From contig JABIGM010000022.1 of assembly GCA_018650165.1 (NCBI GenBank), positions 1-39,523 of the forward strand: a stretch of 39,523 nt of DNA, in the 5' to 3' direction. Numbering within the stretch: position 1 is the stretch's first letter; every line of letters starts with the position of its first letter. Made by a program: the position numbers and the translations under genes. The notes below the pieces were generated by a model. It ran no database searches. It was not told the origin of the DNA and saw only the letters and a program-made list of their open reading frames with translations. Source of the DNA: Methanobacteriota archaeon. GTDB lineage: Archaea > Thermoplasmatota > Poseidoniia > Poseidoniales > Poseidoniaceae. This document shows positions 6,959-39,124 of the stretch, in pieces.

Positions 6959-6977
6959 ACCTGCCCTATGGGCAGGT
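6959..6977 (-). promoter_or_regulatory. Perfect 8-bp hairpin ACCTGCCC-ATA-GGGCAGGT overlapping the alaS RBS
   Basis: Inverted repeat read directly from the sequence; ends 1 nt before the ATG. Function is inferred. Confidence 0.6.
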
Positions 6978-7054
6978 CGTGGGGGTAGCAATCTAACTTC
7001 AAACCATCCCCGATTGAAGCATAGAAATGAAGAGATAGAACGCTTCGCAGGCAC

Positions 7055-8470
7055 GTGGCCGATGGTGAATGGCAGAAATACCTCGAAGTCGAGGGTGATG
7101 GTCTCCTACGTATTAGGCGCCACGCATCAATGAAAGTTGATGCAATGATTGTAGCAGATTCGGCACACTTGGCCAATAGTAGTGACGACCGTTCGATATC
7201 TCAACTTCTCAACATCGCATCAATGCCAGGTGTAGTTGGTGAGGCGTGGGCTATGGCTGATTGGCACTTCGGCTATGGGTTTCCGATAGGAGGTGTTCTT
7301 GCAACGGACCTCGAATGGGGCGATGCGGGTGGCTCGATATCACCCGGTGGGGTCGGGTTCGACATCAACTGTGGTGTTCGACTGGTTGCACTGGACTGCA
7401 GTGTTGATGATATTCCAAATATCGATAAGTTAGCTGGGCGTTTGAATGGTAGGATTCCATCTGGAGGTTCAGGAAAAGGTGGTCTAAAGATTACCAGACA
7501 GGAACTTGATGAGATTATTTCACGTGGCAGTAATGCGATGGTAGATCTTGGCTTTGCACATGAGGAGGATTTACAAAACATCGAATCCAACGGAGTCCTT
7601 GAAACGGACGAAGGTGTATCTGAGCGTGCTATGGAAAGGGGCCTTAAAGCCCTAGGCACACTCGGTTCCGGAAACCATTTTTTGGAATTGCAGACTGTTC
7701 AGACAATCGAGGAAGGAAATCCACACGGTCTTTTCGAGGGCCAGGTACTATGCATGATACATTCTGGGAGTAGAGGTTTAGGCCATCAGGTATGTACTGA
7801 CCATGTACGACTATTGGAGGATAAATATCGTAACCGAAATGGAGTATGGCAGAATGATGAGTGGGGATTTGAAATTCAAGACCGCCAACTAGCGGCTGCT
7901 CCGATTCATAGCCGTGAGGGGCAATCCTATCTGGATGCAATGAACGGTGCTGCCAATTTTGCATTTGCCAATCGGAGTGCATTGACGCACAGACTTAGAC
8001 AAACTCTGGCTGCTGAATTTGAAGTAGAAACAAGACTCTTGTATGATGTTAGCCATAATATTGCAAAAATTGAGACCCATGACATCGATGGTCGAAGTTG
8101 TAAGTGCTGTGTTCACCGTAAGGGAGCCACTAGGGCAATGCCTGGCCAACCCGTTCTAGTTCCCGGGGATATGGGTACAGGCTCATGGCTGCTTGAGGGA
8201 GCTGCAGGAAATCGAGCCTTCGCATCATCGTGCCACGGTGCAGGACGGCTACTATCTCGTTCCGCTGCGAAAAAGAAAATTGATGGAAAGGCAGTCCAAA
8301 GGGAATTGCAATCAAGGGGTATTCGTGTTCATGCAAACACGCCAAATATAATGTCAGAAGAGGCCCCTGATGCATACAAGGATGTCGATGAAGTTATTCG
8401 ATTATCTAATTCGGCGGGTCTGACAAAACCGATTGCCAGGTTGTCACCGCTTGCTGTAATCAAAGGATGA
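7055..8470 (+). CDS. rtcB: RtcB family RNA ligase (tRNA-splicing / RNA repair)
   Basis: DWHFGYGFPIGG, GFDINCGVR, GNHFLE, HSGSRGLGHQ, DVSHN, HRKGATRA, HGAGR, EEAPDAYKDV: all metal ligands and the guanylylated His are present. GTG start. Confidence 0.97.
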   Translation: MADGEWQKYLEVEGDGLLRIRRHASMKVDAMIVADSAHLANSSDDRSISQLLNIASMPGVVGEAWAMADWHFGYGFPIGGVLATDLEWGDAGGSISPGGVGFDINCGVRLVALDCSVDDIPNIDKLAGRLNGRIPSGGSGKGGLKITRQELDEIISRGSNAMVDLGFAHEEDLQNIESNGVLETDEGVSERAMERGLKALGTLGSGNHFLELQTVQTIEEGNPHGLFEGQVLCMIHSGSRGLGHQVCTDHVRLLEDKYRNRNGVWQNDEWGFEIQDRQLAAAPIHSREGQSYLDAMNGAANFAFANRSALTHRLRQTLAAEFEVETRLLYDVSHNIAKIETHDIDGRSCKCCVHRKGATRAMPGQPVLVPGDMGTGSWLLEGAAGNRAFASSCHGAGRLLSRSAAKKKIDGKAVQRELQSRGIRVHANTPNIMSEEAPDAYKDVDEVIRLSNSAGLTKPIARLSPLAVIKG

Positions 8471-8650
8471 TTACATGCAGTAATTCATTTTGGGCTGGCC
8501 ATACGATGGTGCTGCTCCACTTGAGACCCCATCTGGCTCCTCACAAATTACTGAAAGAAGCGTATTCACTAATTCTTTGAGGTCGTTTACTTGCGTTTGT
8601 AATTCTCTAACTCGTGCAGCAGTATCCCTGCTTTCGCTTGTTGTAGTCAT
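8471..8650 (-). CDS. Small hypothetical coiled-coil protein, 59 aa (not in ORF track)
   Basis: Hand translation: MTTTSESRDTAARVRELQTQVNDLKELVNTLLSVICEEPDGVSSGAAPSYGQPKMNYCM*. It fills the gap exactly (stop abuts the rtcB stop) and has a heptad pattern. Confidence 0.65.
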   Translation of the reverse strand: MTTTSESRDTAARVRELQTQVNDLKELVNTLLSVICEEPDGVSSGAAPSYGQPKMNYCM

Positions 8651-8753
8651 GCCAATCCCATCTAGAGAGGGGTGCTCTCTAAATCTAAATCTGTAAAATA
8701 GGCTTTAATGGATTTCGGTCAATTAGAGGTGTTACGCGCGCGTTTGGTGACAG

Positions 8754-11700
8754 TTACTCATCTTGCAGACGTGCTAGTAATTCTGCTTTCCTGCCCTTCA
8801 CTGGTAATCCTCGTTCCCTTAATTCAACCTTCAACTGTGCAACAGTCATGCCAGAAAAATCTGCTTCATCTATCGATTCTGTTTCTTCTTCTACTACTTC
8901 TTCCGTGATCTCAGGGTTTTCTACAACCTCATCGTCCGACGAGTCAACTTCTACCTCTTTAATTTGGGAATGGTCTACATCTGCCCAGGGGTCTTCTGCA
9001 GGAGTTACTTCAACAACTGGTTCCATTTCTAGGTCTGGGGTGACTTCGGGCGCTATCTCTAGGGCCTTAGTTACCGCCTCCATATTGGGCCGTTTTGGCG
9101 CCATTGGAGGTAGAATTGGAGTTACTTTCTGTTCTGTAAATTCTTCGTCATCTTCCCACTCATCATCATCATCGTAGAATATACTCTCATCAGGACTGTT
9201 TCTGCGAAGCAAAACTGCGATTGCTAGCGCTGCACCACCCAAAAGCACTACCAATATCGAAATTATGACTGTCATGCTACCCAAGCCGGAATCAGCATCA
9301 TCTTGGCTGATGACTCTTGGCATATCGGATTCAACATTCAAGTCACATGAGGCTCTGAGTTCAGTTCCAAAACAATGTGGCAGCATTGAATTTTCTACCC
9401 AAGTATCCATTCCAGTAATGTTGACGTGTAGATTTTGTGAGCCACTACCGTGGGTCTCAAACAGAAGCGGTATCGATTCAAGTGTTTGGCCAGGTGATAA
9501 CGAGAGTTCTATGCTACTGTGAGAGAGCCAGCTTCTTTCCGGGCCCAAATCCTCCATAAGAGATACAGTAACTGTTCCTGGCTTAGTTCCCAAATTGCGT
9601 ACATGGACTACAACCCCGATTTCGGTACCTTCTACAATCTCATTACCCCTTGGAGTGCTACCATCCGCTAGAGAAATTTCGATATTCGTAATTGTTACAT
9701 CGAATGACAATACTGTGAAATCTGTATTCATTGCATCGAGATATGAGAGTCCCGTTCCCGATGCAGAATTACCTGCTCTATCGGTAACGTCAACCCACCA
9801 AATTAATTCATCTCCATCCTCAAGGCTAACATTTACTCCTTCGGTAAAGTCAATACTTCCAACATATGACCAAGCATCTGCATTACTAGAGATGTACGGG
9901 ATTATATCATTGGATTGGCCGTTTTCTATAATGACACCATTACGGACAAAAGCCCAATGAACCTGCAAATCATTTCCAGACATACCACCTTCATCTAAGA
10001 TTAGAATGGCAAATGGTTGAACTTCCAATTCTGCATCATCTAGCACCATAGGCCTAGTAGAAAATTGAACAACTGGAGATATTTCATCCACTGTCACATA
10101 GGTTTCAGCACTGCTCACATCATTTCCAGGATGTTGCACACCAGTAATGGAGTAATCAACAATTAAGATGTTTTCAAGAAGTGATCTCGATGGCAAAATC
10201 ATACCAGTAGTCCACCATCCGCCTTCTGTTACTTCCGCATAGGAAGATAAGTCCTCAGACCCATAGGTAGTCGAAACGGTTACTTCAAGCCCCTGCTCAG
10301 GAAGAGTGGACAGCATTACTCCTGACTTGTTGTAAACAACATGGCCAGACAGTGTTAGGTCGTCACCCGGTTGAACATAAATCTGCTCAGAAGAGTTTTC
10401 AGATAGTGGTGGAGTGTTATCTCTCATATCATCAACAATTACTTTCAGGTCATTGTCTAATTGCCAACGTATTTCTCCGAGGTTAGTCAATAGCGCAACT
10501 GGATTCAGATCATCATCATCGAATACTACAATACCCGGCATAGCATACTCCGGCAAGAGTGATTCATCAAAATTCCAATCAAGTGTGAATTGCCACTCGA
10601 CAACTGAATATGATCCTTCATCTGTTACAATAACGTCATGCAATGTTAGTTGCGATAATTCATTCGAATACATGTTACCGTTGCGAGGCTCCCATGTCAT
10701 TACACCAATTGTATCTTCATCAGCACCTAGTAATTTGACAGTTACTACATCGATAGAATTGATTCCATTTTCATCGCTAATTTCCATTGATAATGTGTGC
10801 ATCTGGCCAGCAAGTAATTGCTCGCTTATCGAATCGATACTAAGTCCAGTTGCCGGAATGGTTGTAGGCGCATTGACCGCAATAATCAGTGTGGCCATGT
10901 CGTTGTCTATGCCTGCAGTGCCACCATAAACAAGTGAATGTCCAGCATAATCTGTTCCTGTAAAGAATACTGAGAATAACGCATTCATCTCAAGTCCCGA
11001 TACATCAATCCCACTAAATGTTAGAGTTCTTTCTCCTGAGATTCCCTCTGGTAAATCTCTAGATGTAGCCTGATATTCATCGTAATCTGCGATTCCGTCA
11101 CCATTAGTATCGTCTAAAACTTCCCGCCAGTAGTGCATTACTACCTCGTTACCAAGTGCTTGACTATCGGTAACGGTTACTTGAAGCGAAAGTGAAGACG
11201 AAGGATCCCAAGTGTAGCCATCTGCAGCTAGCAATCTTTGCCCATTGTTAATTTGCAAATTGGAAGCCCATGGGGATTGGTTGTCGAGACGGATACTTAC
11301 AGGGTTAGTCAAAGTCGTATCATCTGCACCACTTGCTCCGGTTGCTGGTCCAGCGCGAATAACATATGGTGTAAGATTGGTAAGTGTTGTATTAGATGGC
11401 AAAGTGATTAATCCGGTCCACTGACCAGCCCCGGTTGAATTGAGAACAACATCATTTCCATCAATAGCAATAGCAACTACGAAATCACTTACAAGTGGCC
11501 TTAGGTCTAAGGTATTTTCAAAACGTACAGTTCCAGAAACTGAAACTTGTGTTCCAGCCTTAGCCCAGAATGGATAGGCCGGTGAAAATACATCGGATAA
11601 ATCATGGCCAAATAAGTCCATCACATTCCAAGAATCAACCTGCAAATCATTCTCACTAGCCTGGGTTGCAACTCCACCTGATTGCGCTGTAGCCGGAGAA

Positions 11701-14700
11701 AGGCCTTCTCCGTTTTCATCAAATCCTTGTGCTGTCCATGACATGGATTGAGAATCATCCCAGTCCCAATCAACCTCAAATTGCCAATCTACAACAAGTC
11801 TTCCACCAACTTCGGTTACTGTAGAGGTAATGTCCAAGGCCAGCATTCCAAACCCGCTTATTTGCGCAAAGGTTCCACCTGCTTGAATATTTGAAAGGAT
11901 TATTTCTAGAGTATCACCCGATGAGTCAAGGCCAATCAGATGTATTTCATCGATATTCTCATTCCCTAGTAAGTGATGGTGACTTGTAGTAAACCCTTGT
12001 AAATCACCATTTGGATACCAGGTTTCGGGAACAGTAAACGGATGATTAGTAATCATATTTTCATGATAAACACCACCATCTATTGCAACTCCACCTGCAA
12101 CAGAAGTCCATGTCAAGGGAACATCAACGATTGGTTCAAGACCATTGTTTGAGTTCAACTCATGGTATGCTTTTACTACTGATCCTAAGCCTGAAACATT
12201 CTCCATCAACGTATAACCGATAGCAAAAGAGCCGATTGTATAGGTTGTTGTTGGAGATGACATCAGATCGATATCAATCATTGACCAATTTCGTCCACTT
12301 ACATCGACAGAGGTACTTGAAGCAACTAACTGAGGGTTAGCAATTGAAAGTACAGTTGTCGACCAATTGTAATTATACAATTGATAGAATGAATTTCCAC
12401 CACTCGAAATTGAAAGTGGCTCAGTATTGCCCGTTGGAGTAATTCCAAGAAGTAAACTGTGAATGTTAGCACCTTCTGGAATCATAACTGACAATGTGTC
12501 GTTTCCAGTAATACTAACCGAATGAGTAATCGATGTCGAATCTATGCGTGTTTGCCATCCATATGAGCCATATGCCGGGTCAGATGGGAATTGCCAATCG
12601 ATAGTTCCATCATCACCTAAGTCGATAGCAGCATCATGTGCTGGCTGTGCAAAAGTTCCACGGAATGCTAGTGTATCTATCATCCCACCAGGTGCTAGTG
12701 TTACTGTTGGACTGATGTGTGTTTTCATTCCACCAAGATCTAATATCGAATTGACAGTGCTTGTAGAGACGCCTTGAGTTCCCATCGTAGTTAGAGTCGA
12801 TGTGGTTTGTGAGAAATTGCCAGTTACAAGAGCAGACGAAATCGGACGAGATGAAAGGCCAGACAAACCGGCAATTACCAATGCAGAAGAACCTGTATTT
12901 TCCCATGTCCCATTGGACAAACGTGTAAGGCTTGCAGGTATGTTCCAACCATTTGAATCTCCAAAGTAGCGAGTTGCACCAATTGACAGTTCACTGATTA
13001 GTGGAGTGTAATACTCATCTTCAGTTCCCATTATAACTTCGACATATACGCCCGGATTTGCATCACGGTCAATCGTAGCTAGTGAAACCGGAAGTGACAT
13101 ATTTTCATGACCAGTAATTACTTGGCCAGTAGAATCTAGGATGTTTATTCCATACCATGTATTATTGGGCAAGATGATATCTGCATCAACAAATCCTTGC
13201 CCCAAGTCATGTGTTGGAATAAGTGGACTCGTCCACGAACCTTCGGTTTCAAACCAATCAACTTCTAATCCGATGTTATCAACATACCAGCCCGGCTCTT
13301 GAACAGCTGTATCTGACATTTGTCGGAACTTGAAAGAAACGTTATTGCCTGATAAATTAGACACATCGTATGCCATATCAAGCCAAGGAATGGTGGCCCC
13401 TGTGCAAGACCAGCCGCCAGAGGTTGCGACGTATTGCCGTCCATCCCAGACATCAGTACCACTGAATGCAACTGTATTGGTAATTTGTCCATCATACCAG
13501 TTACTACCATTTGCATAGTTTACATATGCTTGATTCCAAGTCCCACCATTGACTGAAACATAGAGAGCACCTCCGTCCCATGCATCTTCAGAACACATCC
13601 AATGCTTCCACACAAAACGTGCGCTTGCACCAAGCGGAACGAAGTAGTTCGGAGAAATTAATGAGTTATCTGAACCTGCATCATAAGTCCCACATAGATT
13701 GGTTCCAAACCCAAGACTTGCACTTGGGAATGAACTTGGGCCACCGGAATAATTTGCGCATACTGCGCCAAATTCCCATCCTGTTTGTCCAACTTGATTG
13801 GAGACACTCCAACCACCGGGAGGAAGCGCAGGTGCATCTTCAAGACCATCGTTTAACACGAAGCCACCAGCTCCAATTTGGATGAATGCCCAATCGTCAG
13901 CAGCCCCATTGTTTCCAAAGTGCGTCACTGAAGAAGAATTGCTAAGAAGGTTGGTATCAAGAACTGTTCCACTTGAAGTAACAACCTTGTACCAATCAAC
14001 AGTTAGCCCTTCACGCTCATCGTTTGGAGTACCGTACTGAACTGAAGAATCTGTTTCGACATAGTACTTGATCAGTGAAGTACCATTTGCGCCGATCATT
14101 GCCGTAGGGATTGCGAAATCAACTACAAAGAAACCTCCCGATTGGTCGTTCACTTGAGTGCCATTTGGCAAAGTGTAACTTGAGCCGGGGATTGCCCCTA
14201 TCCTCGAACGGCATGTTGAAGTTGTTGCGCCACTGTTTCCGTTTGATGAAATATCAGTCCAAGTTGTCCCATTGTTTGTTGATAACTCTATACAGAAATT
14301 ATCGTAGGAAGACCCTTCTAAATCAAATTCCAAGCGCGTTTGTATTACTGCACCTGCAGTTGTACTCGACAAATCAATATCTCCTACCATCATTCCCTGT
14401 GCGCTATTACTGTAAAAGCAAGACCCGGTGGCGACATAGCATCCATGGTGCCATAGTCCAACCGAATTTCCTACGTTGGTAATACTGAAATCATCTAGGA
14501 ACCAGCCTGGCCTTGATGTGCTGTTATTGTCAGTCCATACCTGGAATCTAAATTGCAATGTAGTTGCGTTAGTGATTCCAGTTAAGTTATCCAAACTGAA
14601 TGTTGAAGAGATCCAGCCACTGTGATTTCCATCTCCAAATACTCCAAAGCCACTACTGTTTGCTCCGGTAGGAACCGGTGCAGAAGTTGAGATATTCGAA

Positions 14701-15410: not shown

Positions 15411-15413
15411 AAC

Positions 15414-15430
15414 CGAACCCTACGGGTTCG
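15414..15430 (-). promoter_or_regulatory. Perfect 7-bp hairpin CGAACCC-GTA-GGGTTCG just upstream of the giant gene
   Basis: Inverted repeat read directly; 3 nt before GTG 15410 and 9 nt before ATG 15404. Confidence 0.55.
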
Positions 15431-15492
15431 CTGAACCCTATCAACTCTACCCTCACATCTCAGTTTTCAAATCGCAGAAGAAGACCCGTTTT

Positions 15493-15567
15493 TGGAGCCA
15501 CCAGCGAGAATTGAACTCGCGACCTCCTCATTACCAATGAGGTGCTATACCGCTAAGCCATGGTGGC
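15493..15567 (-). tRNA. tRNA-Thr(GGT), CCA encoded, no intron
   Basis: Cloverleaf: GCCACCA/TGGTGGC acceptor, CCTCA-TTGGTAA-TGAGG anticodon arm, GCGAG-TTCAATT-CTCGC T arm, U73-CCA. Confidence 0.97.
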
Positions 15568-15670
15568 GTAATCGTGGCGACCAAACTTTCTGATATAATC
15601 GATTCGCATTGAGATAAACGGCTTTTCGACCGTTTCGGTTAAACAGGAAATGCTTGTCAGCCGGTTTGCG
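15568..15670. promoter_or_regulatory. Divergent tRNA promoter region with TATA-like boxes
   Basis: TTATAT (minus strand, ~15593-15598) and GGTTAAAC (plus strand, ~15637-15644), each about 25-30 nt upstream of the respective tRNA 5' end. Confidence 0.5.
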
Positions 15671-15753
15671 GCCGAGATCGCATAGCCTGGTATTGCGCGC
15701 GACTGGAAATCGCGTGTCCTTGTGGCACGAGAGTTCAAATCTCTCTCTCGGCG
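15671..15753 (+). tRNA. tRNA-Ser(GGA), long variable arm, CCA not fully encoded
   Basis: GCCGAGA/TCTCGGC acceptor, CGCGA-CTGGAAA-TCGCG anticodon arm, variable arm, GAGAG-TTCAAAT-CTCTC T arm, G73. Confidence 0.96.
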
Positions 15754-15846
15754 CCTAATTACACTGATATTTTGAGTCATTACAGAAAAAGAAAGGCTCC
15801 GCATCATTTGCGATTAATTGATAGTTCCAGAGCCTAAGCCCTGAGC

Positions 15847-16959: not shown

Positions 16960-17068
16960 TGTTATTGAGTGGCTGTCAATGAATCCTCCACCAATAGAGT
17001 TGCAAGGTAATGAAAATTAGAATTATTTTGTTGAACGAACTTGAATCTGAACCACAAATCTCTTTGGG

Positions 17069-21313: not shown

Positions 21314-21382
21314 TTCATAATATTACTTACTCAATTAATGCCGATAAAATTCATTTCCCAAACATTTTATCCATATCTATTC

Positions 21383-21399
21383 CACCTCCATAGGAGGTG
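21383..21399 (+). promoter_or_regulatory. Perfect 7-bp hairpin CACCTCC-ATA-GGAGGTG whose 3' arm is an SD-like sequence
   Basis: Inverted repeat read directly; contains the in-frame GTG at 21397. Confidence 0.55.
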
Positions 21400-21441
21400 C
21401 CCAACCGAAATAACTCAAAGGGAGAAAGTCCACCACAAGTC

Positions 21442-22575: not shown

Positions 22576-23786
22576 TGTTTGCAAATCGACGAAAAGACTT
22601 TCCAACATTGTGCGCCGATAACCCGCCTGCATACCTCGATAATGCCTGCATGACATTGCGCCCAACATCTGTTATCGAAGCAATTCGTTCGTATTATGAA
22701 GTAACTCCAGGTTGTGGAGGCAGGTCTGTTCATCGCTATGGGAATGCAGTTTCACGAAAGGTAAACAGTTGTCGCTCTAAATTGCAACAGTTGTTCAATG
22801 CCAATGAAGTTGGTGAAATTGTATTTACTAACAATGCAACTCACTCGCTAAATCAAGTCGCCAAAGGTTTGTCGTGGAATAAAGGTGATATCGTACTAAC
22901 AACAGACAGAGAACACAATTCAAACCTAGTACCGTGGCTACAACTCGAACAGGAACAAGGAATAGACCATAGAGTAGTCCACTCAAATTACGACAACACA
23001 TTTGACCTCGAAGCCTTCGAAGATGCCTGCGCCAAGGCCGGTCGCAAACTGAAGATGGTGTCACTATCGCATGTTGGAAATCTCGATGGAGTTGAGACAC
23101 CGGTCAAGGCAGCAGCTAAAATTGCAAAGGACCATGGGGCCATGGTCTGTATTGATGCTGCACAGTCGGCACCCCACATGAAGATCGATGCTCAAGATTT
23201 GGGGGTTGATTTCATGGCTTTTTCGATTCACAAGATGATGGGGCCATCTGGCATGGGATGCCTATGGGGTAGAATGGATCTGCTTGAAGAGATGAGGACT
23301 ATTCACGCAGGGGGTAGCACAGTCAGTACATCACAATATGATTCATTAGCTTGGTCAAAACCGCCGGCCAAATTTGAGGGTGGGCTCGGAAATTATTCAG
23401 GCATTCTAGGAACTGATGCGGCTCTTGATTATATTTCTGGCTTAGATTTAGATGCTGTCCACGAGCATGAAGTTTCTTTGAATCGTGTTATGACTTCTAT
23501 CGTCAAGGATGTTAATGGGATGAGTATTATTGGCCCAACCGATCCAACACTTCGCGGTGGAATCTGTTCAATTCTCCTTGACAACTTAGATGCACATGAC
23601 ATCGCAATTTTGCTGGATGATGCTGGAATAATGGTTCGGAGCGGAATGCACTGCGTCCATTCTTGGTTCAACAGCAAGGGTATCGCCAAAGGCTCGTTGC
23701 GGGCTAGTTCCTATCTCTACAATACGGAAGAGGAAGTACGTTTATTTGCAGAAACATTGGTCGAGGCAGTCGATGCACTAGGGTGA
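22575..23786 (+). CDS. Cysteine desulfurase, SufS-like (class V PLP aminotransferase)
   Basis: YLDNAC, TDREHNSNLVPW, DAAQSAPH, FSIHKMMGPSG (PLP Lys), RSGMHC (catalytic Cys). TAATG overlap with the upstream gene and GGAGG at 22563-22567. Confidence 0.9.
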   Translation: MFANRRKDFPTLCADNPPAYLDNACMTLRPTSVIEAIRSYYEVTPGCGGRSVHRYGNAVSRKVNSCRSKLQQLFNANEVGEIVFTNNATHSLNQVAKGLSWNKGDIVLTTDREHNSNLVPWLQLEQEQGIDHRVVHSNYDNTFDLEAFEDACAKAGRKLKMVSLSHVGNLDGVETPVKAAAKIAKDHGAMVCIDAAQSAPHMKIDAQDLGVDFMAFSIHKMMGPSGMGCLWGRMDLLEEMRTIHAGGSTVSTSQYDSLAWSKPPAKFEGGLGNYSGILGTDAALDYISGLDLDAVHEHEVSLNRVMTSIVKDVNGMSIIGPTDPTLRGGICSILLDNLDAHDIAILLDDAGIMVRSGMHCVHSWFNSKGIAKGSLRASSYLYNTEEEVRLFAETLVEAVDALG

Positions 23787-23787
23787 T

Positions 23788-24882
23788 TTGATGGATGCAC
23801 TAATACCGATACCCAGTGATGAAACCAGTAATGATTTCGACTTCATAAAGAAGATTACAACTGTTGCTGTATCGGTTCTTGTGATTGGACTAACATATTT
23901 TACTTGGCAAATTATTACGGGGGAAATAAGCTTGACTGGCCCGAATTCATTAGTTCTTGAGAAGGAAACAGATTTTGATTCTCTCGTACAGTTTGATGAT
24001 GTCGATAATCTATCTGGAGATGGGGTAAGCGTATGTATTGTAGATTCGGGACTAGATGATACGCATCGTGACCTCGGAGGGCTTAATTTGAAGGGTTGGT
24101 TTGATTTTATCGGAGGTATATCTAGCCCTTACGATGACAATGGTCATGGCACCATGATGGCTGGAATTCTAGTTGCTGATGGCGGCCTAACCGGTATTGC
24201 TAGAGATATCGATTTATATGTTGCAAAAGCACTGGCAGGTAATGGCTCAGGTGACGACTCCACTGTTGCTGAAGCAATTGATTGGTGCATATCTAGTGGA
24301 GTTAACATTATTTCATTGTCACTTGGAGGAGCGACTTCGGGTGCTGCAATAATCTTTGGTGATGCGGTTGAAGATGCTGTAGATTCTGCCTATGACGCAG
24401 GAATAGTGGTGGTTGCCGCTGCAGGAAATGACGGTGAAGATGATGATGGTGATGTGGCATCACCAGGCACTGTTGACACAGTGATTTGTGTTGGAGGTGT
24501 AGATGCCTCTGGCAATCTGTGGAGTGGTTCTTCTGTTGGCGACAACAATGGACGTGTTTGGCCAATTCTACTACCACGTAACAGCCCGGATGAAAAGCCT
24601 GAAGTCGTTGCTCCAGGTCACAATGTTCCTGTAATTATTCCCGGTGATAGTTGGGGCCTTTCATCAGGAACTAGCGCTGCTACTGTCTATGTCACAGGAG
24701 CAGTTGCACTACTATTCGATGCGCACCCTGATTTAATCGAAGGTGGCACTAACATGCTAGACAATCTAAAGCAATGGATTGCAGACTCTTCACAAAAGCG
24801 GAATGGACAAGATAATCACGACGATTATTACGGCTATGGACTATTACAAATCAAAGATTTGATTGCTACTTCACAGGCTTAA
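23788..24882 (+). CDS. S8 (subtilisin-like) serine peptidase with N-terminal TM anchor
   Basis: Catalytic motifs IVDSG, NGHGTMMAG, AAGND (oxyanion) and GTSAAT. ATG 23791 is the likely start. Confidence 0.92.
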   Translation: MMDALIPIPSDETSNDFDFIKKITTVAVSVLVIGLTYFTWQIITGEISLTGPNSLVLEKETDFDSLVQFDDVDNLSGDGVSVCIVDSGLDDTHRDLGGLNLKGWFDFIGGISSPYDDNGHGTMMAGILVADGGLTGIARDIDLYVAKALAGNGSGDDSTVAEAIDWCISSGVNIISLSLGGATSGAAIIFGDAVEDAVDSAYDAGIVVVAAAGNDGEDDDGDVASPGTVDTVICVGGVDASGNLWSGSSVGDNNGRVWPILLPRNSPDEKPEVVAPGHNVPVIIPGDSWGLSSGTSAATVYVTGAVALLFDAHPDLIEGGTNMLDNLKQWIADSSQKRNGQDNHDDYYGYGLLQIKDLIATSQA

Positions 24883-25559
24883 TTTTTTGAAAACCAAGCA
24901 ACTATTGAACCGCCGAATAAAGGTACGAATGCAATGTAGTGTGTCTCATTCGAAGTACGAATCAATTCCATCCAGGTATTGAAACCTACAACTTCTGGAT
25001 CCCCATCATCGCGTTCCCCAACAGGCGGAGTTGGCTCAACTGTCAGCAAGACTCCATTTTTCGTAAGAATCGGTAACATTGCACTGATGTCCCCTGCAAG
25101 TTTAGGCAATGTTGTGTCAACGATAATTGCATCAGCACTTGGAAGCATTGGAGGGTCGCCTGATTTGGAAATATTCCATGCGTTTAACTCTCCTGCAAGG
25201 AGAGTAGGGGTTCCAACAACAATTGATGATGAAACAGATGAATACCTTTCTTTTAACCTGGTCAAAATTACAGCAAAACGATTGCCTTCCTCAATCATTT
25301 GGAAATTTTCAATACCTTTTGATGACTCGAAATGGTCGAGCAACCAGGCCGACAGATGGCCGATACCTGCGCCGGTTTGTATCACGTTACTCGGTTCCAA
25401 TTGAGAAAGCGCATCACGTATCCTTCTGCGTACAGAAATAGACCACGTTGTGAGCCCCATATGTTCTAATTGTAACCCGATATTAGCAGCAACCTCTGGC
25501 TCATCACGTGACAACTCCTTGTTAACAGTCAAGAGTGATGCCAAGAATTCTTCGCGCAT
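24879..25559 (-). CDS. Putative SAM-dependent methyltransferase-fold protein
   Basis: Gly-rich IQTGAGIGHLSAW motif I, acidic residue after strand 2 (MIEE), DAIIVD. Start ATG 25559 chosen to avoid overlap. Confidence 0.5.
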   Translation of the reverse strand: MREEFLASLLTVNKELSRDEPEVAANIGLQLEHMGLTTWSISVRRRIRDALSQLEPSNVIQTGAGIGHLSAWLLDHFESSKGIENFQMIEEGNRFAVILTRLKERYSSVSSSIVVGTPTLLAGELNAWNISKSGDPPMLPSADAIIVDTTLPKLAGDISAMLPILTKNGVLLTVEPTPPVGERDDGDPEVVGFNTWMELIRTSNETHYIAFVPLFGGSIVAWFSKN

Positions 25560-25652
25560 GATTGGCCCTCTATGGCACCCCTTGACAAGGCTTCGCATAA
25601 GCCGACAGCCTCAAAGGTGTCGCCCATGGCCCACAAATACGGAGGAAGTTGC

Positions 25653-26438
25653 ATGGATGACGAAATTACTGACGATTCTGAAGAATTCGATGATGTTGAA
25701 TTTGTAGAGAATGTAACCGACTGCCCAGGATGTAAGCGGCCTTGTGGTCATCAAGTTCTAAAGGAAAAGAAAGCAGGCACAGGTAGCAACTTTTTGTTGA
25801 AGTGCGATGAGTGCGACCACATTCATACGGTTCAAATTCGAGAACCAAGGCCAGTAACTATTCCATTCCTACTCAGTGAAGGGGCCGACACGGTTCAAAC
25901 AAAAATCGAAATCGATGAAGATGAAGTAATCAGAATTGGTGATATCTTCGAGCATGCCGATGCAAGTTGGGAGATCAACCGTATCGAAACCAAAACTGGT
26001 AACTCACGCAAAAAACTCTCTGCGAATAGAATTGGTCGAGCTAACGCGGTCCGCTCAGATATTGTCATGGTCCGTTTGACTCTAACTAGGGGTGAATTTT
26101 CCGACAGTGAGTCAATATTTGTTGAGCGGGACACTGTCTTCAAAGCAGGTTCCATCATGGAGCATGCCGATGAAAGGTGGAAAATTAGGGCAATTCATAC
26201 CGGCGCTGGTCGTACGATGACAGGGCGGGTTGTTGCCTACGACATCAAGCGCATTTACCTTCATGAACCTCCGCGGCCAAGAGAAGAAGTGACATACAAT
26301 TCGCCTCGTGAAAGGAGACAGGCATGGAAGGAAGGGCGTCTTGGAGATAATCCAAATCCAGTTTTGCCAGAAGCAGAAAAGTCTGGCAAGCCAAAGCAGC
26401 AACGCTTGGAACGTAGACAGAAAAAAAGGCGCTTATGA
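25653..26438 (+). CDS. Archaeal Zn-finger protein (HVO_0476/COG1326-like)
   Basis: CPGC...HQVLK...LLKCDECDHIH followed by two repeated beta-rich units. ATG 25653 has GGAGG at 25641-25645. Confidence 0.7.
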   Translation: MDDEITDDSEEFDDVEFVENVTDCPGCKRPCGHQVLKEKKAGTGSNFLLKCDECDHIHTVQIREPRPVTIPFLLSEGADTVQTKIEIDEDEVIRIGDIFEHADASWEINRIETKTGNSRKKLSANRIGRANAVRSDIVMVRLTLTRGEFSDSESIFVERDTVFKAGSIMEHADERWKIRAIHTGAGRTMTGRVVAYDIKRIYLHEPPRPREEVTYNSPRERRQAWKEGRLGDNPNPVLPEAEKSGKPKQQRLERRQKKRRL

Positions 26439-27416
26439 TCATGGGCGATTCGTCCATGGCATCATGAATGCCTTGGCGACTTGGGTACCGATGGTTGGAT
26501 TCTCTTTGAGACGACGAATTGAGTATTCATACCATTTCTCCCCATATGGTATGTAAACACGCGTCGGATGTCCTTTTGCTCGTAACTTACGACGAAGTGG
26601 CCCCCTAACACCGAGTAGCATTTGGAATTCATAGCCAGGGCCTTTGCCGATGCGCTCCTTTCCAGAATTGGTCCGAGGGTCCAATCCATTGGGGCCCATA
26701 CCACGAGATGAAAGTGCCTCAAGAGCGTGGTTGATTACCGGATGATCATGGCTTGCAATTCCAACATAGGCACCAGCATCTAACATTTCATCGATGCATG
26801 CATTTGTTGCTTTGATGATGGGCTGCCTATCTGTGTGAGAAATTTCAGAAGGTTCGAGGTATATTCCCTTGCAAATACGATAATCCGCATTCGGACCGAG
26901 TTTTTGTGCGATGCTTTTGATGTCATCTATTGTACGGAACAGGCGCGCTTGTAGAACGACACCCACGTTCGTCAAGCCCTTTTCGTGCATATCTAGCATA
27001 ACTTGTATCGTGTCATCTGTTACGCGGTGGTCTTCCATATCCAGCCGGACAAACATGTCATGATTATTAGCCATCGTTACCAATGCCTCAATATTTTCCA
27101 TTCCTTTTTCACTGTCCAATAATAATCCGAATGCAGTGGGCTTAATCGATAGATTAGCATCCAATTTATTCTCGGTTATGACTGTAATAACACGTTTGTA
27201 CTCTTCCAAAAAGAATGTTGCTTCGTCCATTGTTGTAATTTCTTCACCAAGAACATCGATTGTGAAACACGACCCTTCTTTTGACAATCTTTGCATTACT
27301 TTAGTCGCATCTGCCAGGGTCGGACCAGCCACATACCTTCGACTAACCCATCCTACAAACCAGCGTGGCATCCTTACGGTTATACCAACAACCATTCGTG
27401 AGAATAGCCCGACCAT
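26439..27416 (-). CDS. Monofunctional proline dehydrogenase
   Basis: RRYVAG, IDVLGE, LSIKPT, RLDMED, GVVLQARL, RICKGIY, GIASHD, YEFQMLLG, VYIPYG..WYEYSIRRLKENP. Confidence 0.92.
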   Translation of the reverse strand: MVGLFSRMVVGITVRMPRWFVGWVSRRYVAGPTLADATKVMQRLSKEGSCFTIDVLGEEITTMDEATFFLEEYKRVITVITENKLDANLSIKPTAFGLLLDSEKGMENIEALVTMANNHDMFVRLDMEDHRVTDDTIQVMLDMHEKGLTNVGVVLQARLFRTIDDIKSIAQKLGPNADYRICKGIYLEPSEISHTDRQPIIKATNACIDEMLDAGAYVGIASHDHPVINHALEALSSRGMGPNGLDPRTNSGKERIGKGPGYEFQMLLGVRGPLRRKLRAKGHPTRVYIPYGEKWYEYSIRRLKENPTIGTQVAKAFMMPWTNRP

Positions 27417-27452
27417 GTTACCACTGGTAGTGTAGGCGATTCTTGACCGTTT

Positions 27453-28367
27453 TCATCCAATGATTTCTGAACTTTTGAGTAAAGGTATGCCTAAATCATC
27501 AAGAAGTTCTCTGATTGCTTGTCTTTGCCAGCCCTTGAAGGCCTTTTTATCCATACTGCAAATCAACTCCCCTCCGGGAAAGGCTAATGCGGTTGCTGCA
27601 AGCGCTTTGCGGATACTATTTTCCCACATCCCCCCAATATTACCGAATTCATCTTTTGTGAATGGTAGTGCGTAAGTTGCCAGCATATGTCCAATCCAAA
27701 TTCCTTCGTGTGAAGCCAAGAGGTTTCCACGGGGGGCATAATGTCCTCCGCCAAGTGTTACTACGACACGGCCTTGGCCGGCCCATCCTCCAAGTCCAGA
27801 GCCCCCATTCAAACCAAGGCCTCGATGGATAATTCCAGCAAGTAATTTGGCAGCACCTTTGTGCCCCCAAGTTTCAGCGGTTGAACCGATTTCAATGAAT
27901 AATGATGGTGTTTCAATCCATGGTCCATGGTGTGTGGTTTCGAGTGATAAACTAAATTCATCCAAATCACTTGCAACTATATTTAATTCACGCCACCACG
28001 CGCCAATACGCGGGTTTGGAGGTGGGCAATCTCCGGCACGCCCTCCATAATCGGGAATGGCATCAGTCGGAATTTGCATTGTCCCAATCGGGTGCAAGGT
28101 TAGCGATGCATTGCCACTAGCAGCCGAATGGCGTGAGGGGAAAATAATCTCATCCGGGACTTCACCCGTTGCCTTTGCCCATCTTTTGTCGAGATCATCT
28201 TCCCACAAACAACCATCATCTAACCACCAAATTCGTGCATTCTTGAAAGAATATGCAACTTGCCCTTCAACTGGATTAAGCGGGACCCAGTTTGCAAGTT
28301 TCATTAGTTCATGCGCTTGGTTAGTTGATGCGATATCGCCGCCGGATACAAGAATCAGACTGACCAT
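27453..28367 (-). CDS. dtdA: D-aminoacyl-tRNA deacylase, archaeal DTD2 type
   Basis: FPSRHSAASGNASLTLHPIG, LETTHHGP, PSLFIEIGS...W, LGGGHYAPR. Confidence 0.92.
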   Translation of the reverse strand: MVSLILVSGGDIASTNQAHELMKLANWVPLNPVEGQVAYSFKNARIWWLDDGCLWEDDLDKRWAKATGEVPDEIIFPSRHSAASGNASLTLHPIGTMQIPTDAIPDYGGRAGDCPPPNPRIGAWWRELNIVASDLDEFSLSLETTHHGPWIETPSLFIEIGSTAETWGHKGAAKLLAGIIHRGLGLNGGSGLGGWAGQGRVVVTLGGGHYAPRGNLLASHEGIWIGHMLATYALPFTKDEFGNIGGMWENSIRKALAATALAFPGGELICSMDKKAFKGWQRQAIRELLDDLGIPLLKSSEIIG

Positions 28368-28399
28368 GTTCAGGCGTAGAGTAGTGGACTATTGAAGGA

Positions 28400-29296
28400 A
28401 TGGTTCACAAGCCGAGTTCATGTCCCCGTTTCATGGAGACAGCACCTTGGCGTATTTTCCATCACAATGACCAAGAAATAATCATTGATGTGGATGGAGG
28501 AATTTCCATCGGCGGTCATACTACTCATCCGTTCCCATGTGAGATCACATTTGCATCACTGTGCGACAATGGCCTAGTTGCTACATGGGTTGACCATGAT
28601 TTACGTTTGGCGCGCATGGCGTTTATTTCACTGGATGAACCCCTCCAAGAAGGTGCAACTAAGGCACAACTGCGGTTGAAGAGAGATAGTACAATGGTTG
28701 CTGGGTCTAAATGGTGCCACATTATTGATTCAGAACCTTTGGCTGTCGAAGCTGAAGATGACAAGATTGTTTTTGCACTTTGGGCAAGAGGAATATACTG
28801 TATTGACTCATCTGCCAATGAATTATGGCGAATCCCATTATCCACTAATGTGGGTAAATCACCGCCTCGCTCAAACGAAATAACATCATTAAATATTGAC
28901 GGGGACAGTGTGGTTGTGTGGTCCCGTGGGGGCACATTTAGTCAGATATCAATGTTGAATGGAAAGCAATTAAGTCAAGGTGAACTTGGTGTCCCCTGTG
29001 ATATTGAAAATGTGTTTAATCACGGTGATAGATTTCTAATCTCATCGAAGGATGGATGGATTTGGGAATTTAGAGATGAGGAAATCACAGTAGCAAGGAA
29101 GTTACGTGGAACCATACAAGATGCCGCTTTTGATGGCGACGATTGGCGGATAATTTCTTGGAGAGAGGATCTGATGTTACTTGGTGAATCACAAACACGT
29201 GCCGATTTAGGCGTACAAATATTCCAAAACGATGGAGAATGGTTAGTCATTGACAACCAAGGGCAAAGTAGCCCCCATATGCCTGATAAGAACTAA
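28400..29296 (+). CDS. Hypothetical protein, possibly beta-propeller-like
   Basis: Long ORF filling the gap between dtdA and S27ae; repeated beta-strand/Trp patterns (GIYCIDSSANELWRIP). Start may be ATG 28433. Confidence 0.6.
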   Translation: MVHKPSSCPRFMETAPWRIFHHNDQEIIIDVDGGISIGGHTTHPFPCEITFASLCDNGLVATWVDHDLRLARMAFISLDEPLQEGATKAQLRLKRDSTMVAGSKWCHIIDSEPLAVEAEDDKIVFALWARGIYCIDSSANELWRIPLSTNVGKSPPRSNEITSLNIDGDSVVVWSRGGTFSQISMLNGKQLSQGELGVPCDIENVFNHGDRFLISSKDGWIWEFRDEEITVARKLRGTIQDAAFDGDDWRIISWREDLMLLGESQTRADLGVQIFQNDGEWLVIDNQGQSSPHMPDKN

Positions 29297-29467
29297 TCAC
29301 TCATTGGTTTGCGTAAAGCCACAGCGACCACAAGATTTGCGATCTGAGTGAACAGCAAGGAAAACTCCAGGGCCACATTGTGGACAGAACTCAGCCTTAC
29401 GTACTAGTGAACCATCTTCGACAGAGTACTTTGACCACTTTGCTCCAGCATTAGGACCATCGGACAT
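29297..29467 (-). CDS. rps27ae: 30S ribosomal protein S27ae (not in ORF track)
   Basis: Hand translation: [56 protein letters not shown]. [11 protein letters not shown]...CGRCG signature, TGATG overlap with S24e, GGAGGTGA RBS. Confidence 0.95.
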
Positions 29468-29838
29468 CAAGCCTCACCTCCTTTCTCTTCTTCTTCTGCA
29501 GGTGCTTCTTCAGCAGGTGCTTCTTCGGCAGGTGCTTCTTCAGCAGGCGTTGCATTGGAAGTACGCATGCCTTCATAGCGTGCAAGCATGTAATCTGGTT
29601 CAACTTTCATAGATTTTTCATCGGAATAAACAATACCAAGTCCAGTTGTTGAACCTGTTCCGAATCTTGTATTGACATTCTTAATCACTATCAAATCACG
29701 GTTAGACCCCGGTTCAATTGATGCAATGGCATTTAGCATATTTTGACGAGAGGGAGTCGCTGCACCTTCATGGTTCCAGCGGAATTCGATTTCTACGCGG
29801 TTAAGCAGTGGGTTTTCTTTACGGTCAATTATTTCCAT
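29467..29838 (-). CDS. rps24e: 30S ribosomal protein S24e with acidic repeat tail
   Basis: [30 protein letters not shown]; GGAGG RBS. Confidence 0.95.
29498..29547 (+). repeat. 15-bp tandem repeat gcaggtgcttcttc(a/g), 3 full copies plus a partial, encoding PAEEA repeats in S24e
   Basis: Units at 29498, 29513 and 29528, with a partial unit at 29543. Confidence 0.9.
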
Positions 29839-29851
29839 ATTAATTCCTCCT

Positions 29852-30055
29852 TCAACGACTATTTACTTTGAGTGCGTAGTTCCCTGGCACTTCGATTTTT
29901 AGACGACTTGCAATTTCTGAACGTGTTGGGTCCATAACTACGACATACCCGCTCCAATCAGAGGATACTGGTGCAGAAGGGTGGCGTGTACATTGGTCGA
30001 TACCATCTGCGAGAATCAAGTGACATTCGCTGCATGCAAAGGGGTTCTTAGCCAT
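29852..30055 (-). CDS. spt4: Transcription elongation factor Spt4 (RpoE'')
   Basis: ACSEC...SSDWSGYVVVMDPTRSEIASRLKIEVPGNYALKV; directly downstream of rpoE'. Confidence 0.93.
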   Translation of the reverse strand: MAKNPFACSECHLILADGIDQCTRHPSAPVSSDWSGYVVVMDPTRSEIASRLKIEVPGNYALKVNSR

Positions 30056-30071
30056 TCAAATCACTCCTAAT

Positions 30072-30623
30072 TCAGTTTTGGTCCTCGTGGATCCATTCGT
30101 GACTGCCAAGTCCGCTCTGCTTGCAAGTCAATCCGATCTTGGAGCGACGTGGGTCACTCGTATCAGGGGAAAGGGAAACAATACGTGCTCTAACTGAACT
30201 ACCTACACCCAGTTTACGACCACTTTGGCGACCTTCAAGAACACCCATGCCAGCATTGATATCAACATGGTCTTCCATAATTTGGGACTTGTGCAGAAGT
30301 GCTTCCATAGGGCCGATTCGGACGAACGCTCCGAAATCATTGACTTCGGAAACAGCTCCTTCAACAACTTCGTAATCCTCGATACAGAATAGCACCGCAT
30401 CGAAACGAACTTCTTGGTATATTGCTCCGTCACCATGAATAATTCTTCCACGACCAATTGGTTCGTGGTTTGAAGTTACAAGAACAAACTGGTTATCATC
30501 ATCAAAACGACCTTCGAAAGCAGAAGCCGCTAGGCGGTCAATGTGTTCATTCAGTGACTTATCCTTACGGATGTATTCCGCAGGGATACGAATAGTGTCC
30601 TCCTTTGTGACAACTTTGTACAT
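30072..30623 (-). CDS. rpoE1: DNA-directed RNA polymerase subunit E' (Rpo7)
   Basis: EDTIRIP, GRGRIIHGDGAIY, FGAFVRIGPMEALLHKSQI, VRARIVSLS, KIGLTCKQSGLG; GGTGA RBS. Confidence 0.96.
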   Translation of the reverse strand: MYKVVTKEDTIRIPAEYIRKDKSLNEHIDRLAASAFEGRFDDDNQFVLVTSNHEPIGRGRIIHGDGAIYQEVRFDAVLFCIEDYEVVEGAVSEVNDFGAFVRIGPMEALLHKSQIMEDHVDINAGMGVLEGRQSGRKLGVGSSVRARIVSLSPDTSDPRRSKIGLTCKQSGLGSHEWIHEDQN

Positions 30624-30635
30624 ATTTTTTCACCG

Positions 30636-30747
30636 CCTCGGGCTTCTCCATCCGAGTTACTGCAGGTAGGACGATTGAGGCTTAGTTGCCTCATCCGTCC
30701 TTCACCGGCATGTGCCTCGGGAGAGAAGTGTGACCGAAGTCATCCAC
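30636..30747 (-). ncRNA. Candidate structured 5' leader or ncRNA upstream of rpoE'
   Basis: cUUCGg hairpin (30728-30747) plus a nested irregular rod (30643-30728) found by manual pairing. No family recognised. Confidence 0.5.
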
Positions 30748-30854
30748 GCCACCATCGACCCCTATTTGAATGATACGCCCCGTAATCGAGGTCCTGTTCG
30801 CTTAACAAGCCCCGATTTTGGCTAAGAATATAAGGTCTAGATATCGCTTTCTCA

Positions 30855-30871
30855 TGGGCCCGTAGGGCCCA
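30855..30871 (+). promoter_or_regulatory. Perfect 7-bp hairpin TGGGCCC-GTA-GGGCCCA, 36 nt upstream of the 30908 gene and about 22 nt downstream of a TATA-like AATATAA
   Basis: Inverted repeat read directly from the sequence. Confidence 0.55.
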
Positions 30872-30907
30872 AAGCCATAACAACCTTGTACTACCCGATA
30901 ATTACCT

Positions 30908-38893: not shown

Positions 38894-39015
38894 GGGGCAC
38901 AGTGACAATCGTTCCCGTGGGCTCTCGCACCACAGTACCAGAAATGACGCAGATGGGCTTGACTTCCGGGTTCGGGATGGGACCGGGTAAACACCACCGC
39001 TATGACCGTGCACCC
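38894..39015 (-). rRNA. rrf: 5S rRNA
   Basis: CACGGTCATAGCGG...TACCCGGTCCCATCCCGAACCCGGAAGTCAAGC...GTACTGTGGTGCGAGAGCCCACGGGAA...; terminal helix GCACGGT/ACTGTGC; about 122 nt. Ends are approximate. Confidence 0.95.
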
Positions 39016-39124
39016 ATCTTCCTTCGAATCGGAAGTGGATGCGATCCAGCGTTTGGATCGCTTCTCGAATTGGCATGAACTTATGAATGAAGGGCACTCG
39101 CCGGTGCGGTGCATACACAAAAAG

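Follow-up and report, generated by a model that had tools for sequence, protein, structure and literature searches.

Perfect hairpin-capable palindromes with a shared C-RNA-G centre in the promoter-bearing gaps of a Marine Group II archaeon

Why should four short, perfect inverted repeats, alike in their centres and unrelated in their outer arms, stand beside the 5' ends of four genes on a single archaeal contig? The question is raised by a stretch of 39,523 nucleotides (hereafter the window), which is contig C9 of a 1.75-Mb, 66-contig assembly (G000; 44% G+C, 80% complete) of a marine archaeon, a Poseidoniales-like relative of Marine Group II (MGII). For comparison, 40 genomes of the same order were at hand. 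An initial inspection of the letters without database searches (the sequence-only reading) had reported four hairpins with the core CC-RTA-GG (R, purine), at alaS, at a gene of 2218 amino acids (aa), at an operon and at an 1848-aa gene, and all four were recovered with the same arms and loops (Table 1). The window holds nine perfect hairpins with a 3-nt loop and a stem of at least 7 bp, four of which share CC-RTA-GG; the remaining ten CCRTAGG cores pair over 2-4 bp, which agrees with the original remark that such cores are otherwise poorly paired. We give a probability of about 40% to the reading that these are selected, hairpin-capable palindromes built into the core-promoter regions of MGII, where they would act on promoter DNA, at transcription initiation, when it is melted.

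For counting, a strict family was defined by a stem of at least 6 bp, CC..GG beside the loop, and a loop of GTA, ATA, TAA, GAA or AAA or the complement of one of these; a looser related set (n = 57) consisted of any C-closed hairpin with a GTA-, ATA- or TAA-type loop. The genome contains 56 strict hairpins, against 3.5 +/- 1.6 in 20 first-order Markov shuffles, and 39 with a stem of at least 7 bp, against 0.9 in the shuffles, so four in one window are far beyond chance. The sequence-only reading had conceded that its motif was chosen post hoc; the excess that it suspected holds out of sample as well. Stem lengths of the 240 CCRTAGG cores are bimodal (138, 49, 11 and 4, then 14, 16 and 8), whereas those of the control GGRTACC, which has the same composition, run 155, 49, 10, 2 and 0. 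With no motif assumed, the most enriched intergenic 6-mers are words of the hairpin core (for example, TAGGGG and CCCGTA). The closing pair of 110 intergenic perfect hairpins is 5'-C/G-3' in 54% of cases, compared with 16% inside genes, and their loops are mostly GTA, ATA and TAA, with GTA well above the other two, whereas AAT and ATT dominate within genes. In the strict family the loops are GTA/TAC in 27 cases, ATA/TAT in 11, TAA/TTA in 10 and GAA/TTC in 4, and 5'-CC..GG-3' is preferred over GG..CC on both strands. The stems (6-9 bp, perfect) are unique and mutually unrelated beyond the CC/GG beside the loop, while their outer 4-6 bp are complementary at more than 50 sites; what the sites share is the C-G closing pair and the R-T-A centre, as had been proposed. 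These are inverted repeats of the cruciform type, with perfect arms and a short AT-containing centre (TA is found in the centre of 48 of the 56).

About 50 of the 56 lie outside gene bodies (judged by eye), in gaps that hold a promoter, and the description of the hairpins as marks of gene 5' ends therefore stands in the sense that they belong to promoter-bearing gaps. Among the 57 members of the related set, 49 are in gaps (18 divergent, 29 tandem), and these numbers track the length of promoter-bearing gaps. Convergent gaps contain no member of the strict family where about 3.9 are expected; the strong depletion first supposed was reduced to P ~0.02 on scoring, and under a looser definition with any second pair two hairpins fall in convergent gaps, both ambiguous. 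Many of those in tandem gaps start only 1-25 nt past the stop codon of the preceding gene. Measured from the hairpin 3' edge, the starts of the next long open reading frames form two clusters, at 0-15 nt and at 30-70 nt, and about ten hairpins abut a start codon (0-4 nt).

The genes served are long, with a median of 472 aa compared with 313 aa for the others. More than 1000 aa are encoded by 18 of 65 hairpin genes and by 56 of 1300 other genes (odds ratio 8.5, p = 1.4e-9), and 10 of the 29 genes above 1500 aa carry a hairpin; N-terminal hydrophobic segments are about twofold enriched in hairpin genes (p ~0.01). In function they are diverse (alaS, thrS, aRF1, lipoyl synthase, short-chain dehydrogenases, ETF, an amino-acid kinase, giant surface proteins). 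Such unrelated genes make a single RNA regulon unlikely, which weakens the earlier suggestion of a shared RNA-binding-protein regulon; the same diversity fits a general promoter feature. Ten small genes adjacent to hairpins were checked for an autoregulated DNA-binding protein, and none was found.

The upstream regions of eight hairpin genes were then compared across 14-29 genomes of the genus, a hairpin being scored as present when it was perfect, C-closed and had a stem of at least 5 bp (loci outside the window are named by contig and position). As the sequence-only reading had asked of related genomes, the hairpins recur upstream of orthologues at all eight sites, in proportions from 4 of 14 to 26 of 26. 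At the 2218-aa gene six stems were found (CGAACCC, CGGACCC, CAGACCC, CGGCCCC, CATACCC and CGTACCC), all of them Watson-Crick paired and with a GTA loop throughout, except for one genome in which an extra C makes the loop CGTA. In the alignment of this site (A1) all 147 cells are paired, three of the seven pairs have changed on both sides and none on one side only, a covariation matched by 0 of 500 shuffles; the claim that the outer stems covary is thereby upheld. Compensatory changes were also found at C63:13295 (TCGCCCC to CAGCCCC), at C36:22380 (AGGTGCC to AGGTACC, also CCACC), at C4:7391 (TGCCCC to CGCCCC) and at the operon (ACCTCC to ACCTCT). At the 1848-aa and 2218-aa genes the hairpin is kept while the flanking intergenic DNA diverges across the genus. 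The alignments support the view that the pairing potential itself is maintained at orthologous sites. Stems are also lost, in 5 of 25 genomes at the operon and in most at C36:22380, where the core CCGTAG stays fixed in place in genomes without the outer stem. The exact core CCCGTAGGG outnumbers its reversed control in genomes of the same genus (27 vs 5, 48 vs 12, 31 vs 5 and 32 vs 2); it is enriched as well in part of a sister genus and in two genera of another family, and elsewhere in the order no enrichment over the reversed control was seen.

Start sites were predicted with a TATA model, a position weight matrix (PWM) combined with a 29-nt rule, both calibrated on the leaderless genes of the genome itself. 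TATA-like words (TTGAA, TTCAA and others) have their first T in a peak 28-31 nt before unambiguous ATGs, and the 20-nt PWM for the B recognition element (BRE) and TATA box, aaCGaaAnnTT[CG]A[AT]G, gives 78 matches at 28-31 nt, compared with about 1.2 per position elsewhere; many mRNAs are therefore likely to be leaderless, starting about 29 nt past the first T. This arrangement is found in at least 20% of genes, while others have a Shine-Dalgarno GAGG at -11 to -8. In tRNA promoters this box precedes the mature 5' end by about 32 nt, and a PWM built from these promoters was too weak and was replaced by the leaderless-gene PWM. Many ATGs just past hairpins were rejected as start codons, because they lie within (T/C)CAATGA or TTGATG TATA-like boxes.

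With this model most hairpins would sit against the transcription start site, in three predicted registers: in the spacer between TATA and start (the 2218-aa gene), beginning at the start (alaS), or just ahead of the promoter (probably so at the operon); the hairpin of the 1848-aa gene is ambiguous. For this genome the PWM assigns about 10 hairpins a start no more than 4 nt from their 3' edge and about 6 a start within their first 8 nt; for about 12 the start would be 30-43 nt downstream, with the hairpin just upstream of the BRE/TATA. Among orthologues of the 2218-aa gene (22 of 24), C4:7391 (18 of 19) and thrS (14 of 23) a PWM match recurs 11-14 nt ahead of the hairpin, and it does so at C36:22380 in only 2 of 6 hairpin-bearing genomes; at alaS (10 of 13) and C63 (14 of 14) it recurs 26-29 nt ahead. 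At C4:7391 and C36:22380 the aligned genomes, with or without the stem, all have the TATA box exactly 30 nt from the ATG. With only 1-3 nt between the end of the hairpin and the ATG, a leader that contains the hairpin would not fit. The same rule predicts for thrS and the 2218-aa gene leaders of 13 nt and 5-11 nt that begin at the hairpin 3' edge. On this model the idea that each hairpin lies at the transcript 5' end would hold for alaS and C63; it is not supported for the 2218-aa gene, C4:7391, C36:22380 and thrS, with a box 11-14 nt upstream, and for the operon, with a weak box downstream. Because the registers vary, many hairpins are probably not transcribed with their gene. Base composition pooled around all hairpins showed no fixed TATA spacing and no T-run, and a strict histogram of TATA words against hairpin edges in this genome alone was too sparse to prove bimodality.

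At alaS the hairpin (predicted RNA fold, -15.4 kcal/mol) has an ATA, GTA, TAA or AAA loop among the genus genomes that carry it. In most relatives the ATG lies 7 nt past the hairpin, which puts the AGGTG of the 3' arm at Shine-Dalgarno distance. The first T of TTGAA in the conserved block upstream is 25 nt before the hairpin 5' edge, and the start would fall in the first bases of the hairpin. Boxes of sequence TTTGAA had been noticed upstream of both alaS and the 2218-aa gene; both exist, and that of alaS is the genus-conserved BRE/TATA-like block, whereas the conserved, high-scoring box of the 2218-aa gene is GTTGATAGG. The latter gene encodes a 2216/2218-aa surface protein with an InhA-like MAM domain and a SAP domain. 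The columns of its box are invariant in alignment A1; TTGAT has its first T 14 nt ahead of the hairpin, and the start is predicted about 2 nt before the hairpin 3' edge. A third copy of the arm, GGGTTC-GCT-GAACCC, overlaps this hairpin in this genome only, so that GGGTTC, CGAACCC and GGGTTCG on the minus strand could form two mutually exclusive hairpins.

The third hairpin precedes a gene for a 377-aa protein that heads an aminotransferase class V/peptidase S8 operon. Its orthologues include one covarying stem (ACCTCT/AGAGGT), and the sense-strand loops are TAC in 10 genomes, ATA in 4, GTA in 3, and TAT, GAA and TGTA in one each. The block between hairpin and ATG is more conserved than the hairpin; block and spacing are kept in all relatives, including the five without a hairpin. 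The block is possibly the BRE/TATA of a leaderless promoter, and its PWM match is weak (score 5.3, in 15 of 20 genomes). For the 377-aa protein, only long metagenome contigs were retrieved, which gave no start-site evidence. The fourth hairpin belongs to a 1843/1848-aa FG-GAP-repeat protein. Its stem is the same in 25 of 26 genomes, the remaining one having GGCTC-AGT-GAGCC; the loops in the genus are GTA in 17, TAC in 5, TAT in 2 and GAA in 1, and those in metagenome contigs are GTA 50, TAC 7, TAT 3 and GAA 2, counted with a search pattern that held the stem fixed. That scan yielded 84 DNA contigs whose ends are unrelated to the hairpin, and thus no start-site evidence. Relatives have a GGTGAGG or GGTGAAG Shine-Dalgarno exactly 30 nt past the TAAC that follows the hairpin, and the orthologues show no recurrent PWM match; TAAC as a leaderless TATA was therefore dropped as unproven. 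The gene probably starts at ATG 30923 rather than at 30908, since GGTGAGG or GGTGAAG stands about 5 nt before the aligned ATG or GTG of the relatives and the window has GGAG 9 nt before 30923.

If the hairpins act in promoter DNA, the unwinding of the promoter, by the open complex or by negative supercoiling behind polymerases on very long membrane-targeted genes, would let the arms fold back. The sense (non-template) strand would form a compact C-RNA-G mini-hairpin with an R-N-A loop, and this would tune opening, escape or local supercoiling; a hairpin starting at +1 would also cap the RNA 5' end. Intrastrand templated repair of the foldbacks would keep the arms perfectly complementary and would now and then invert the loop. 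The presence of a gyrase A-type topoisomerase gene on contig C38 makes negative supercoiling plausible. This reading leans on the many members that are probably untranscribed, the varied registers, the concerted, Watson-Crick-only evolution, the exact inversion of loops, and the unrelated targets. The link with very long membrane-targeted genes fits a role in supercoiling or opening and a need for long-lived mRNA alike. A sharper version, which we think rather unlikely, would make the strand-specific C-(purine-N-A)-G mini-hairpin flanking the start a core promoter element on the unwound non-template strand, timing or stabilising the open complex and absorbing negative supercoils at very long membrane-anchored genes.

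Several points weigh against an action in promoter DNA. Every register depends on the PWM and the 29-nt rule. With 6-9 bp, the arms are short for a cruciform to extrude stably at physiological supercoiling; the DNA would first have to be melted in order to fold back. Hairpins beginning at the predicted start (alaS, C63 and others) would be transcribed, and their orthologues show, by eye, sense-only T.G pairs and GNRA-type tetraloops; several promoters also have, again by eye, a second and weaker AT-rich box that precedes the hairpin by about 26 nt and would place it at the RNA 5' end. A free Shine-Dalgarno directly follows the hairpin in about nine genes. The absence of loop inversions at start-flanking sites (see below) also fits a role in RNA. 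No binding factor was identified. HU (PF00216) and archaeal histone (PF00808) had no match in this 80%-complete genome. The three registers may mean more than one function.

Several of these points speak for an RNA element. Most or all hairpins would then belong to 5' leaders, often sitting right at the transcript's 5' end, and would shield the mRNA from 5'-to-3' decay (archaeal exonucleases of RNase J or aCPSF2 type) or tune ribosome access to the neighbouring Shine-Dalgarno or start codon; very long mRNAs would gain most. We take this as a serious competitor, though somewhat unlikely. The stems are predicted to be very stable as RNA (-10 to -15 kcal/mol), the BRE/TATA at alaS and C63 stands 26-29 nt upstream and would place the start in the first bases of the hairpin, and the orthologues of these two genes have the GTAA/GTGA tetraloops (alaS) and the T.G pairs confined to the sense strand (alaS and C63), in alignments read by eye and unscripted. 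The order of hairpin, Shine-Dalgarno (GAGG, GGTGA), 5-8 nt and ATG in about nine genes suits an organism that uses GAGG at -11 to -8, and the enrichment before long genes would follow. Four or five hairpin genes follow closely on a tRNA gene of the same strand (tRNA-Phe on C4, tRNA-Ser on C36, tRNA-Pro on C35), where processing of RNase Z type would expose a 5' end; the 2218-aa gene follows tRNA-Thr on one strand in every genus genome examined. On the other side stand C4:7391 and C36:22380, where a high-scoring BRE/TATA precedes the hairpin by 12 nt and the ATG by exactly 30 nt and no free Shine-Dalgarno is present, and likewise the hairpins that abut their start codon. At the operon the TATA-like box is downstream of the hairpin, keeps its spacing to the ATG and outlasts the loss of the hairpin.

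The evidence on strand and loop is divided between the two. The sequence-only reading had expected the RTA loop to be biased to the sense strand. A ratio of 30:7 seemed to bear this out and was discarded, since it was inflated by the choice of orientation in divergent gaps; the tandem gaps of this genome give 15 GTA/ATA to 7 TAC/TAT on the sense strand (p = 0.13), which argues against an RNA element. Among orthologues the loop has flipped to its exact reverse complement at the 1848-aa gene (7 of 26) and the operon (11 of 20), again to the disadvantage of RNA, whereas at the six sites that flank the predicted start no flip was seen in about 97 observations (non-independent genome-site counts) and the loops are GTA, ATA, GAA, TAA and AAA only. 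The expected bias is weak in tandem gaps, is broken at two sites and holds at six. Wobble pairs (G.T/G.U) are absent from 52 perfect and 8 imperfect stems of this genome's family, and the 2218-aa site has no one-sided change; both count against RNA.

That the hairpins have no function of their own is improbable. They would then be by-products of hairpin-templated mutation (template switching, quasi-palindrome correction) at promoters that are often melted, tolerated because they lie outside coding sequence. Perfect Watson-Crick stems, concerted changes of both arms without intermediates, exact loop inversion and the turnover of stems at the operon and C36:22380 are what such a process would leave, and stems identical to those of this genome occur at non-orthologous loci in a genome of another family (see below). 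It would hardly keep the same hairpin in 25 of 26 genomes at the 1848-aa gene and in all at the 2218-aa gene while the flanks diverge, nor yield a narrow loop repertoire with a fixed closing pair; without selection the pronounced preference for long genes would be hard to explain, and an orthologous promoter in the other family carries a hairpin with a different stem.

Still less credible, and in our view quite improbable, is a duplex operator at which one dimeric regulator reads CC-RTA-GG, as at SurR-type GTT-N3-AAC sites, repressing at or after the TATA box and activating upstream of the BRE, with arm symmetry as a side effect of quasi-palindrome correction. The elements are operator-sized (15-21 bp with a 3-bp centre), their registers vary around the BRE/TATA and the start, two sites are insensitive to orientation, and the core at C36:22380 stays put where the outer stem is lost. 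Such a regulator gives no reason for complementary outer 4-6 bp at more than 50 sites that share nothing beyond the CC/GG and the centre; a C-G closing pair with a purine-N-A loop is what a folded single strand would favour, not what a reader of duplex DNA needs. The unrelated targets form no regulon, and the ten small neighbours included no regulator gene. Finally, REP-like transcription terminators or 3'-end stabilisers of the upstream gene are a very remote prospect despite the many hairpins that start shortly after a stop codon, because neither strand shows a T-run after the hairpin, about 18-20 hairpins are in divergent gaps, where no upstream gene ends, and the strict family is absent from convergent gaps, where terminators should gather.

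Among known systems, repetitive extragenic palindromic (REP) sequences and bacterial interspersed mosaic elements (BIME) resemble the MGII hairpins in being short, GC-rich, hairpin-capable, intergenic palindromes with concerted arm change, many per genome. REPs repeat one or a few consensus sequences, have imperfect stems, are concentrated just past the 3' ends of genes and are tied to RAYT transposases, whereas the MGII stems are each unique and perfect, have only the closing pairs and centre in common and no whole-stem consensus, and lie in promoter-bearing gaps, many of them divergent. The 5' stem-loops of ompA, aprE and ermC share with alaS, C63, C38:82069 and C31 a stable hairpin near the first transcribed bases followed by a ribosome-binding site; those are single leaders, unlike a genome-wide family with a fixed loop, many members of which are predicted upstream of the start. 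An archaeal example of such a 5' stabiliser was not found in the literature searched.

To our knowledge, hairpin-dependent promoters have been known until now only from phage N4. The promoters of its virion RNA polymerase have a 5-7 bp stem and a 3-nt loop, the loop being centred about 10-11 nt upstream of the start, and need unwound DNA. This layout matches C4:7391, C36:22380 and C5:46781. N4, however, uses a single-subunit phage polymerase that reads the template strand with the help of E. coli SSB and gyrase, whereas the promoters described here have a conserved archaeal BRE/TATA, a register that varies from -60 to +19 and no known dedicated polymerase, for which no search was made. As to the loop, d(C-GNA-G) DNA mini-hairpins are reportedly extra stable (Hirao and co-workers), GAA being the most stable loop. 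The C-G closing pair, the GTA and GAA loops and the GTAA/GTGA variants at alaS orthologues recall these, but ATA and TAA are common in the MGII family and GAA is rare. Hairpins in the spacer register may also be set beside the discriminators of stringent or supercoiling-sensitive bacterial promoters, a GC-rich block between promoter element and start at which opening is rate-limiting; discriminators are not palindromic and belong to sigma-70, so the analogy is functional only.

The family is apparently undescribed, as the sequence-only reading had supposed: Rfam 15, at the gathering score, matched in the whole window only the LSU rRNA, the 5S rRNA and two tRNAs and no hairpin family, and no description of an MGII hairpin family was found in the literature searched. 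MGII are among the most abundant archaea of the surface ocean, uncultured, and their gene control is almost unstudied. No other sequence feature of their intergenic DNA is as over-represented as this element, which is concentrated at the giant secreted proteins thought to underlie their lifestyle. Should it act in promoter DNA, cellular RNA polymerase would have a new kind of core-promoter element; should it act in RNA, archaea would have their first genome-wide family of hairpins that protect 5' ends. In both cases gene-start and promoter annotation in MGII genomes would improve.

Table 1. Positions of the hairpins and of features beside them, and occurrence of the hairpin in orthologous upstream regions of the genus (positions are those of the window unless a contig is given).
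Feature	Sequence	Position	Strand	Genus genomes with hairpin	Remarks
Hairpin 1, alaS	ACCTGCCC-ATA-GGGCAGGT	6959-6977	-	13/23	8-bp stem, perfect; 1 nt before alaS ATG (6957)
BRE/TATA-like block, alaS	GGGATGGTTTGAAGG	6998-7012	-		Genus-conserved, upstream of alaS; PWM score 7.8
Hairpin 2, 2218-aa gene	CGAACCC-GTA-GGGTTCG	15414-15430	-	24/24	7-bp stem, perfect; 3 nt before GTG, 9 nt before ATG
Third arm copy	GGGTTC-GCT-GAACCC	15424-15438	-		Overlaps hairpin 2
BRE/TATA-like box, 2218-aa gene	GTTGATAGG	15437-15445	-		6 nt upstream of hairpin 2; PWM score 8.9
Hairpin 3, operon	CACCTCC-ATA-GGAGGTG	21383-21399	+	20/25	7-bp stem, perfect; 42 nt upstream of ATG 21442
Conserved block, operon	AACCGAAATAACTCAAAGGGA	21403-21423	+		Between hairpin 3 and ATG; TAACT-to-ATG spacing fixed at 31 nt
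Hairpin 4, 1848-aa gene	TGGGCCC-GTA-GGGCCCA	30855-30871	+	26/26	7-bp stem, perfect; 36 nt before ATG 30908, 51 nt before ATG 30923
Conserved block, 1848-aa gene	AAGCC(A/C)TAAC(A/T)ACC	30872-30885	+		Directly 3' of hairpin 4; may be a leader start or a weak TATA
Hairpin, C4:7391				19/23	
Hairpin, thrS				23/29	
Hairpin, C63:13295				14/26	
Hairpin, C36:22380				4/14	
Hairpin pair, 1627-aa gene	GAGTCCC-GAA-GGGACTC and CCGCCC-GTA-GGGCGG	G000:C17:6482-6544			In tandem, 31 nt apart, upstream of the gene
GyrA-type topoisomerase gene		G000:C38:30266-31642			
Hairpins in another family (examples)		G039:C1:65856-65874, 280810-280824, 352177-352193			
tRNA-Thr and tRNA-Ser		15493-15755	- and +		Divergent from a shared 103-nt gap
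5S rRNA		38894-39013	-		
23S rRNA, 3' end		39120-39523	-		Leaves the window at the contig end

A genome of another family, assembled as a single contig (G039), was surveyed over 400 kb (C1:1-400000). It has C-closed hairpins with TA-containing loops at a similar density and with a looser core. Three of them have stems identical to the alaS, C4:7391 and 1848-aa stems of the present genome at non-orthologous loci, which suggests a restricted stem vocabulary or convergence. In the present genome, two members of the family stand in tandem upstream of a 1627-aa gene on contig C17. As for RNA genes, the window carries two tRNAs, transcribed divergently from one short gap, together with a 5S rRNA and the 3' end of a 23S rRNA of archaeal type.

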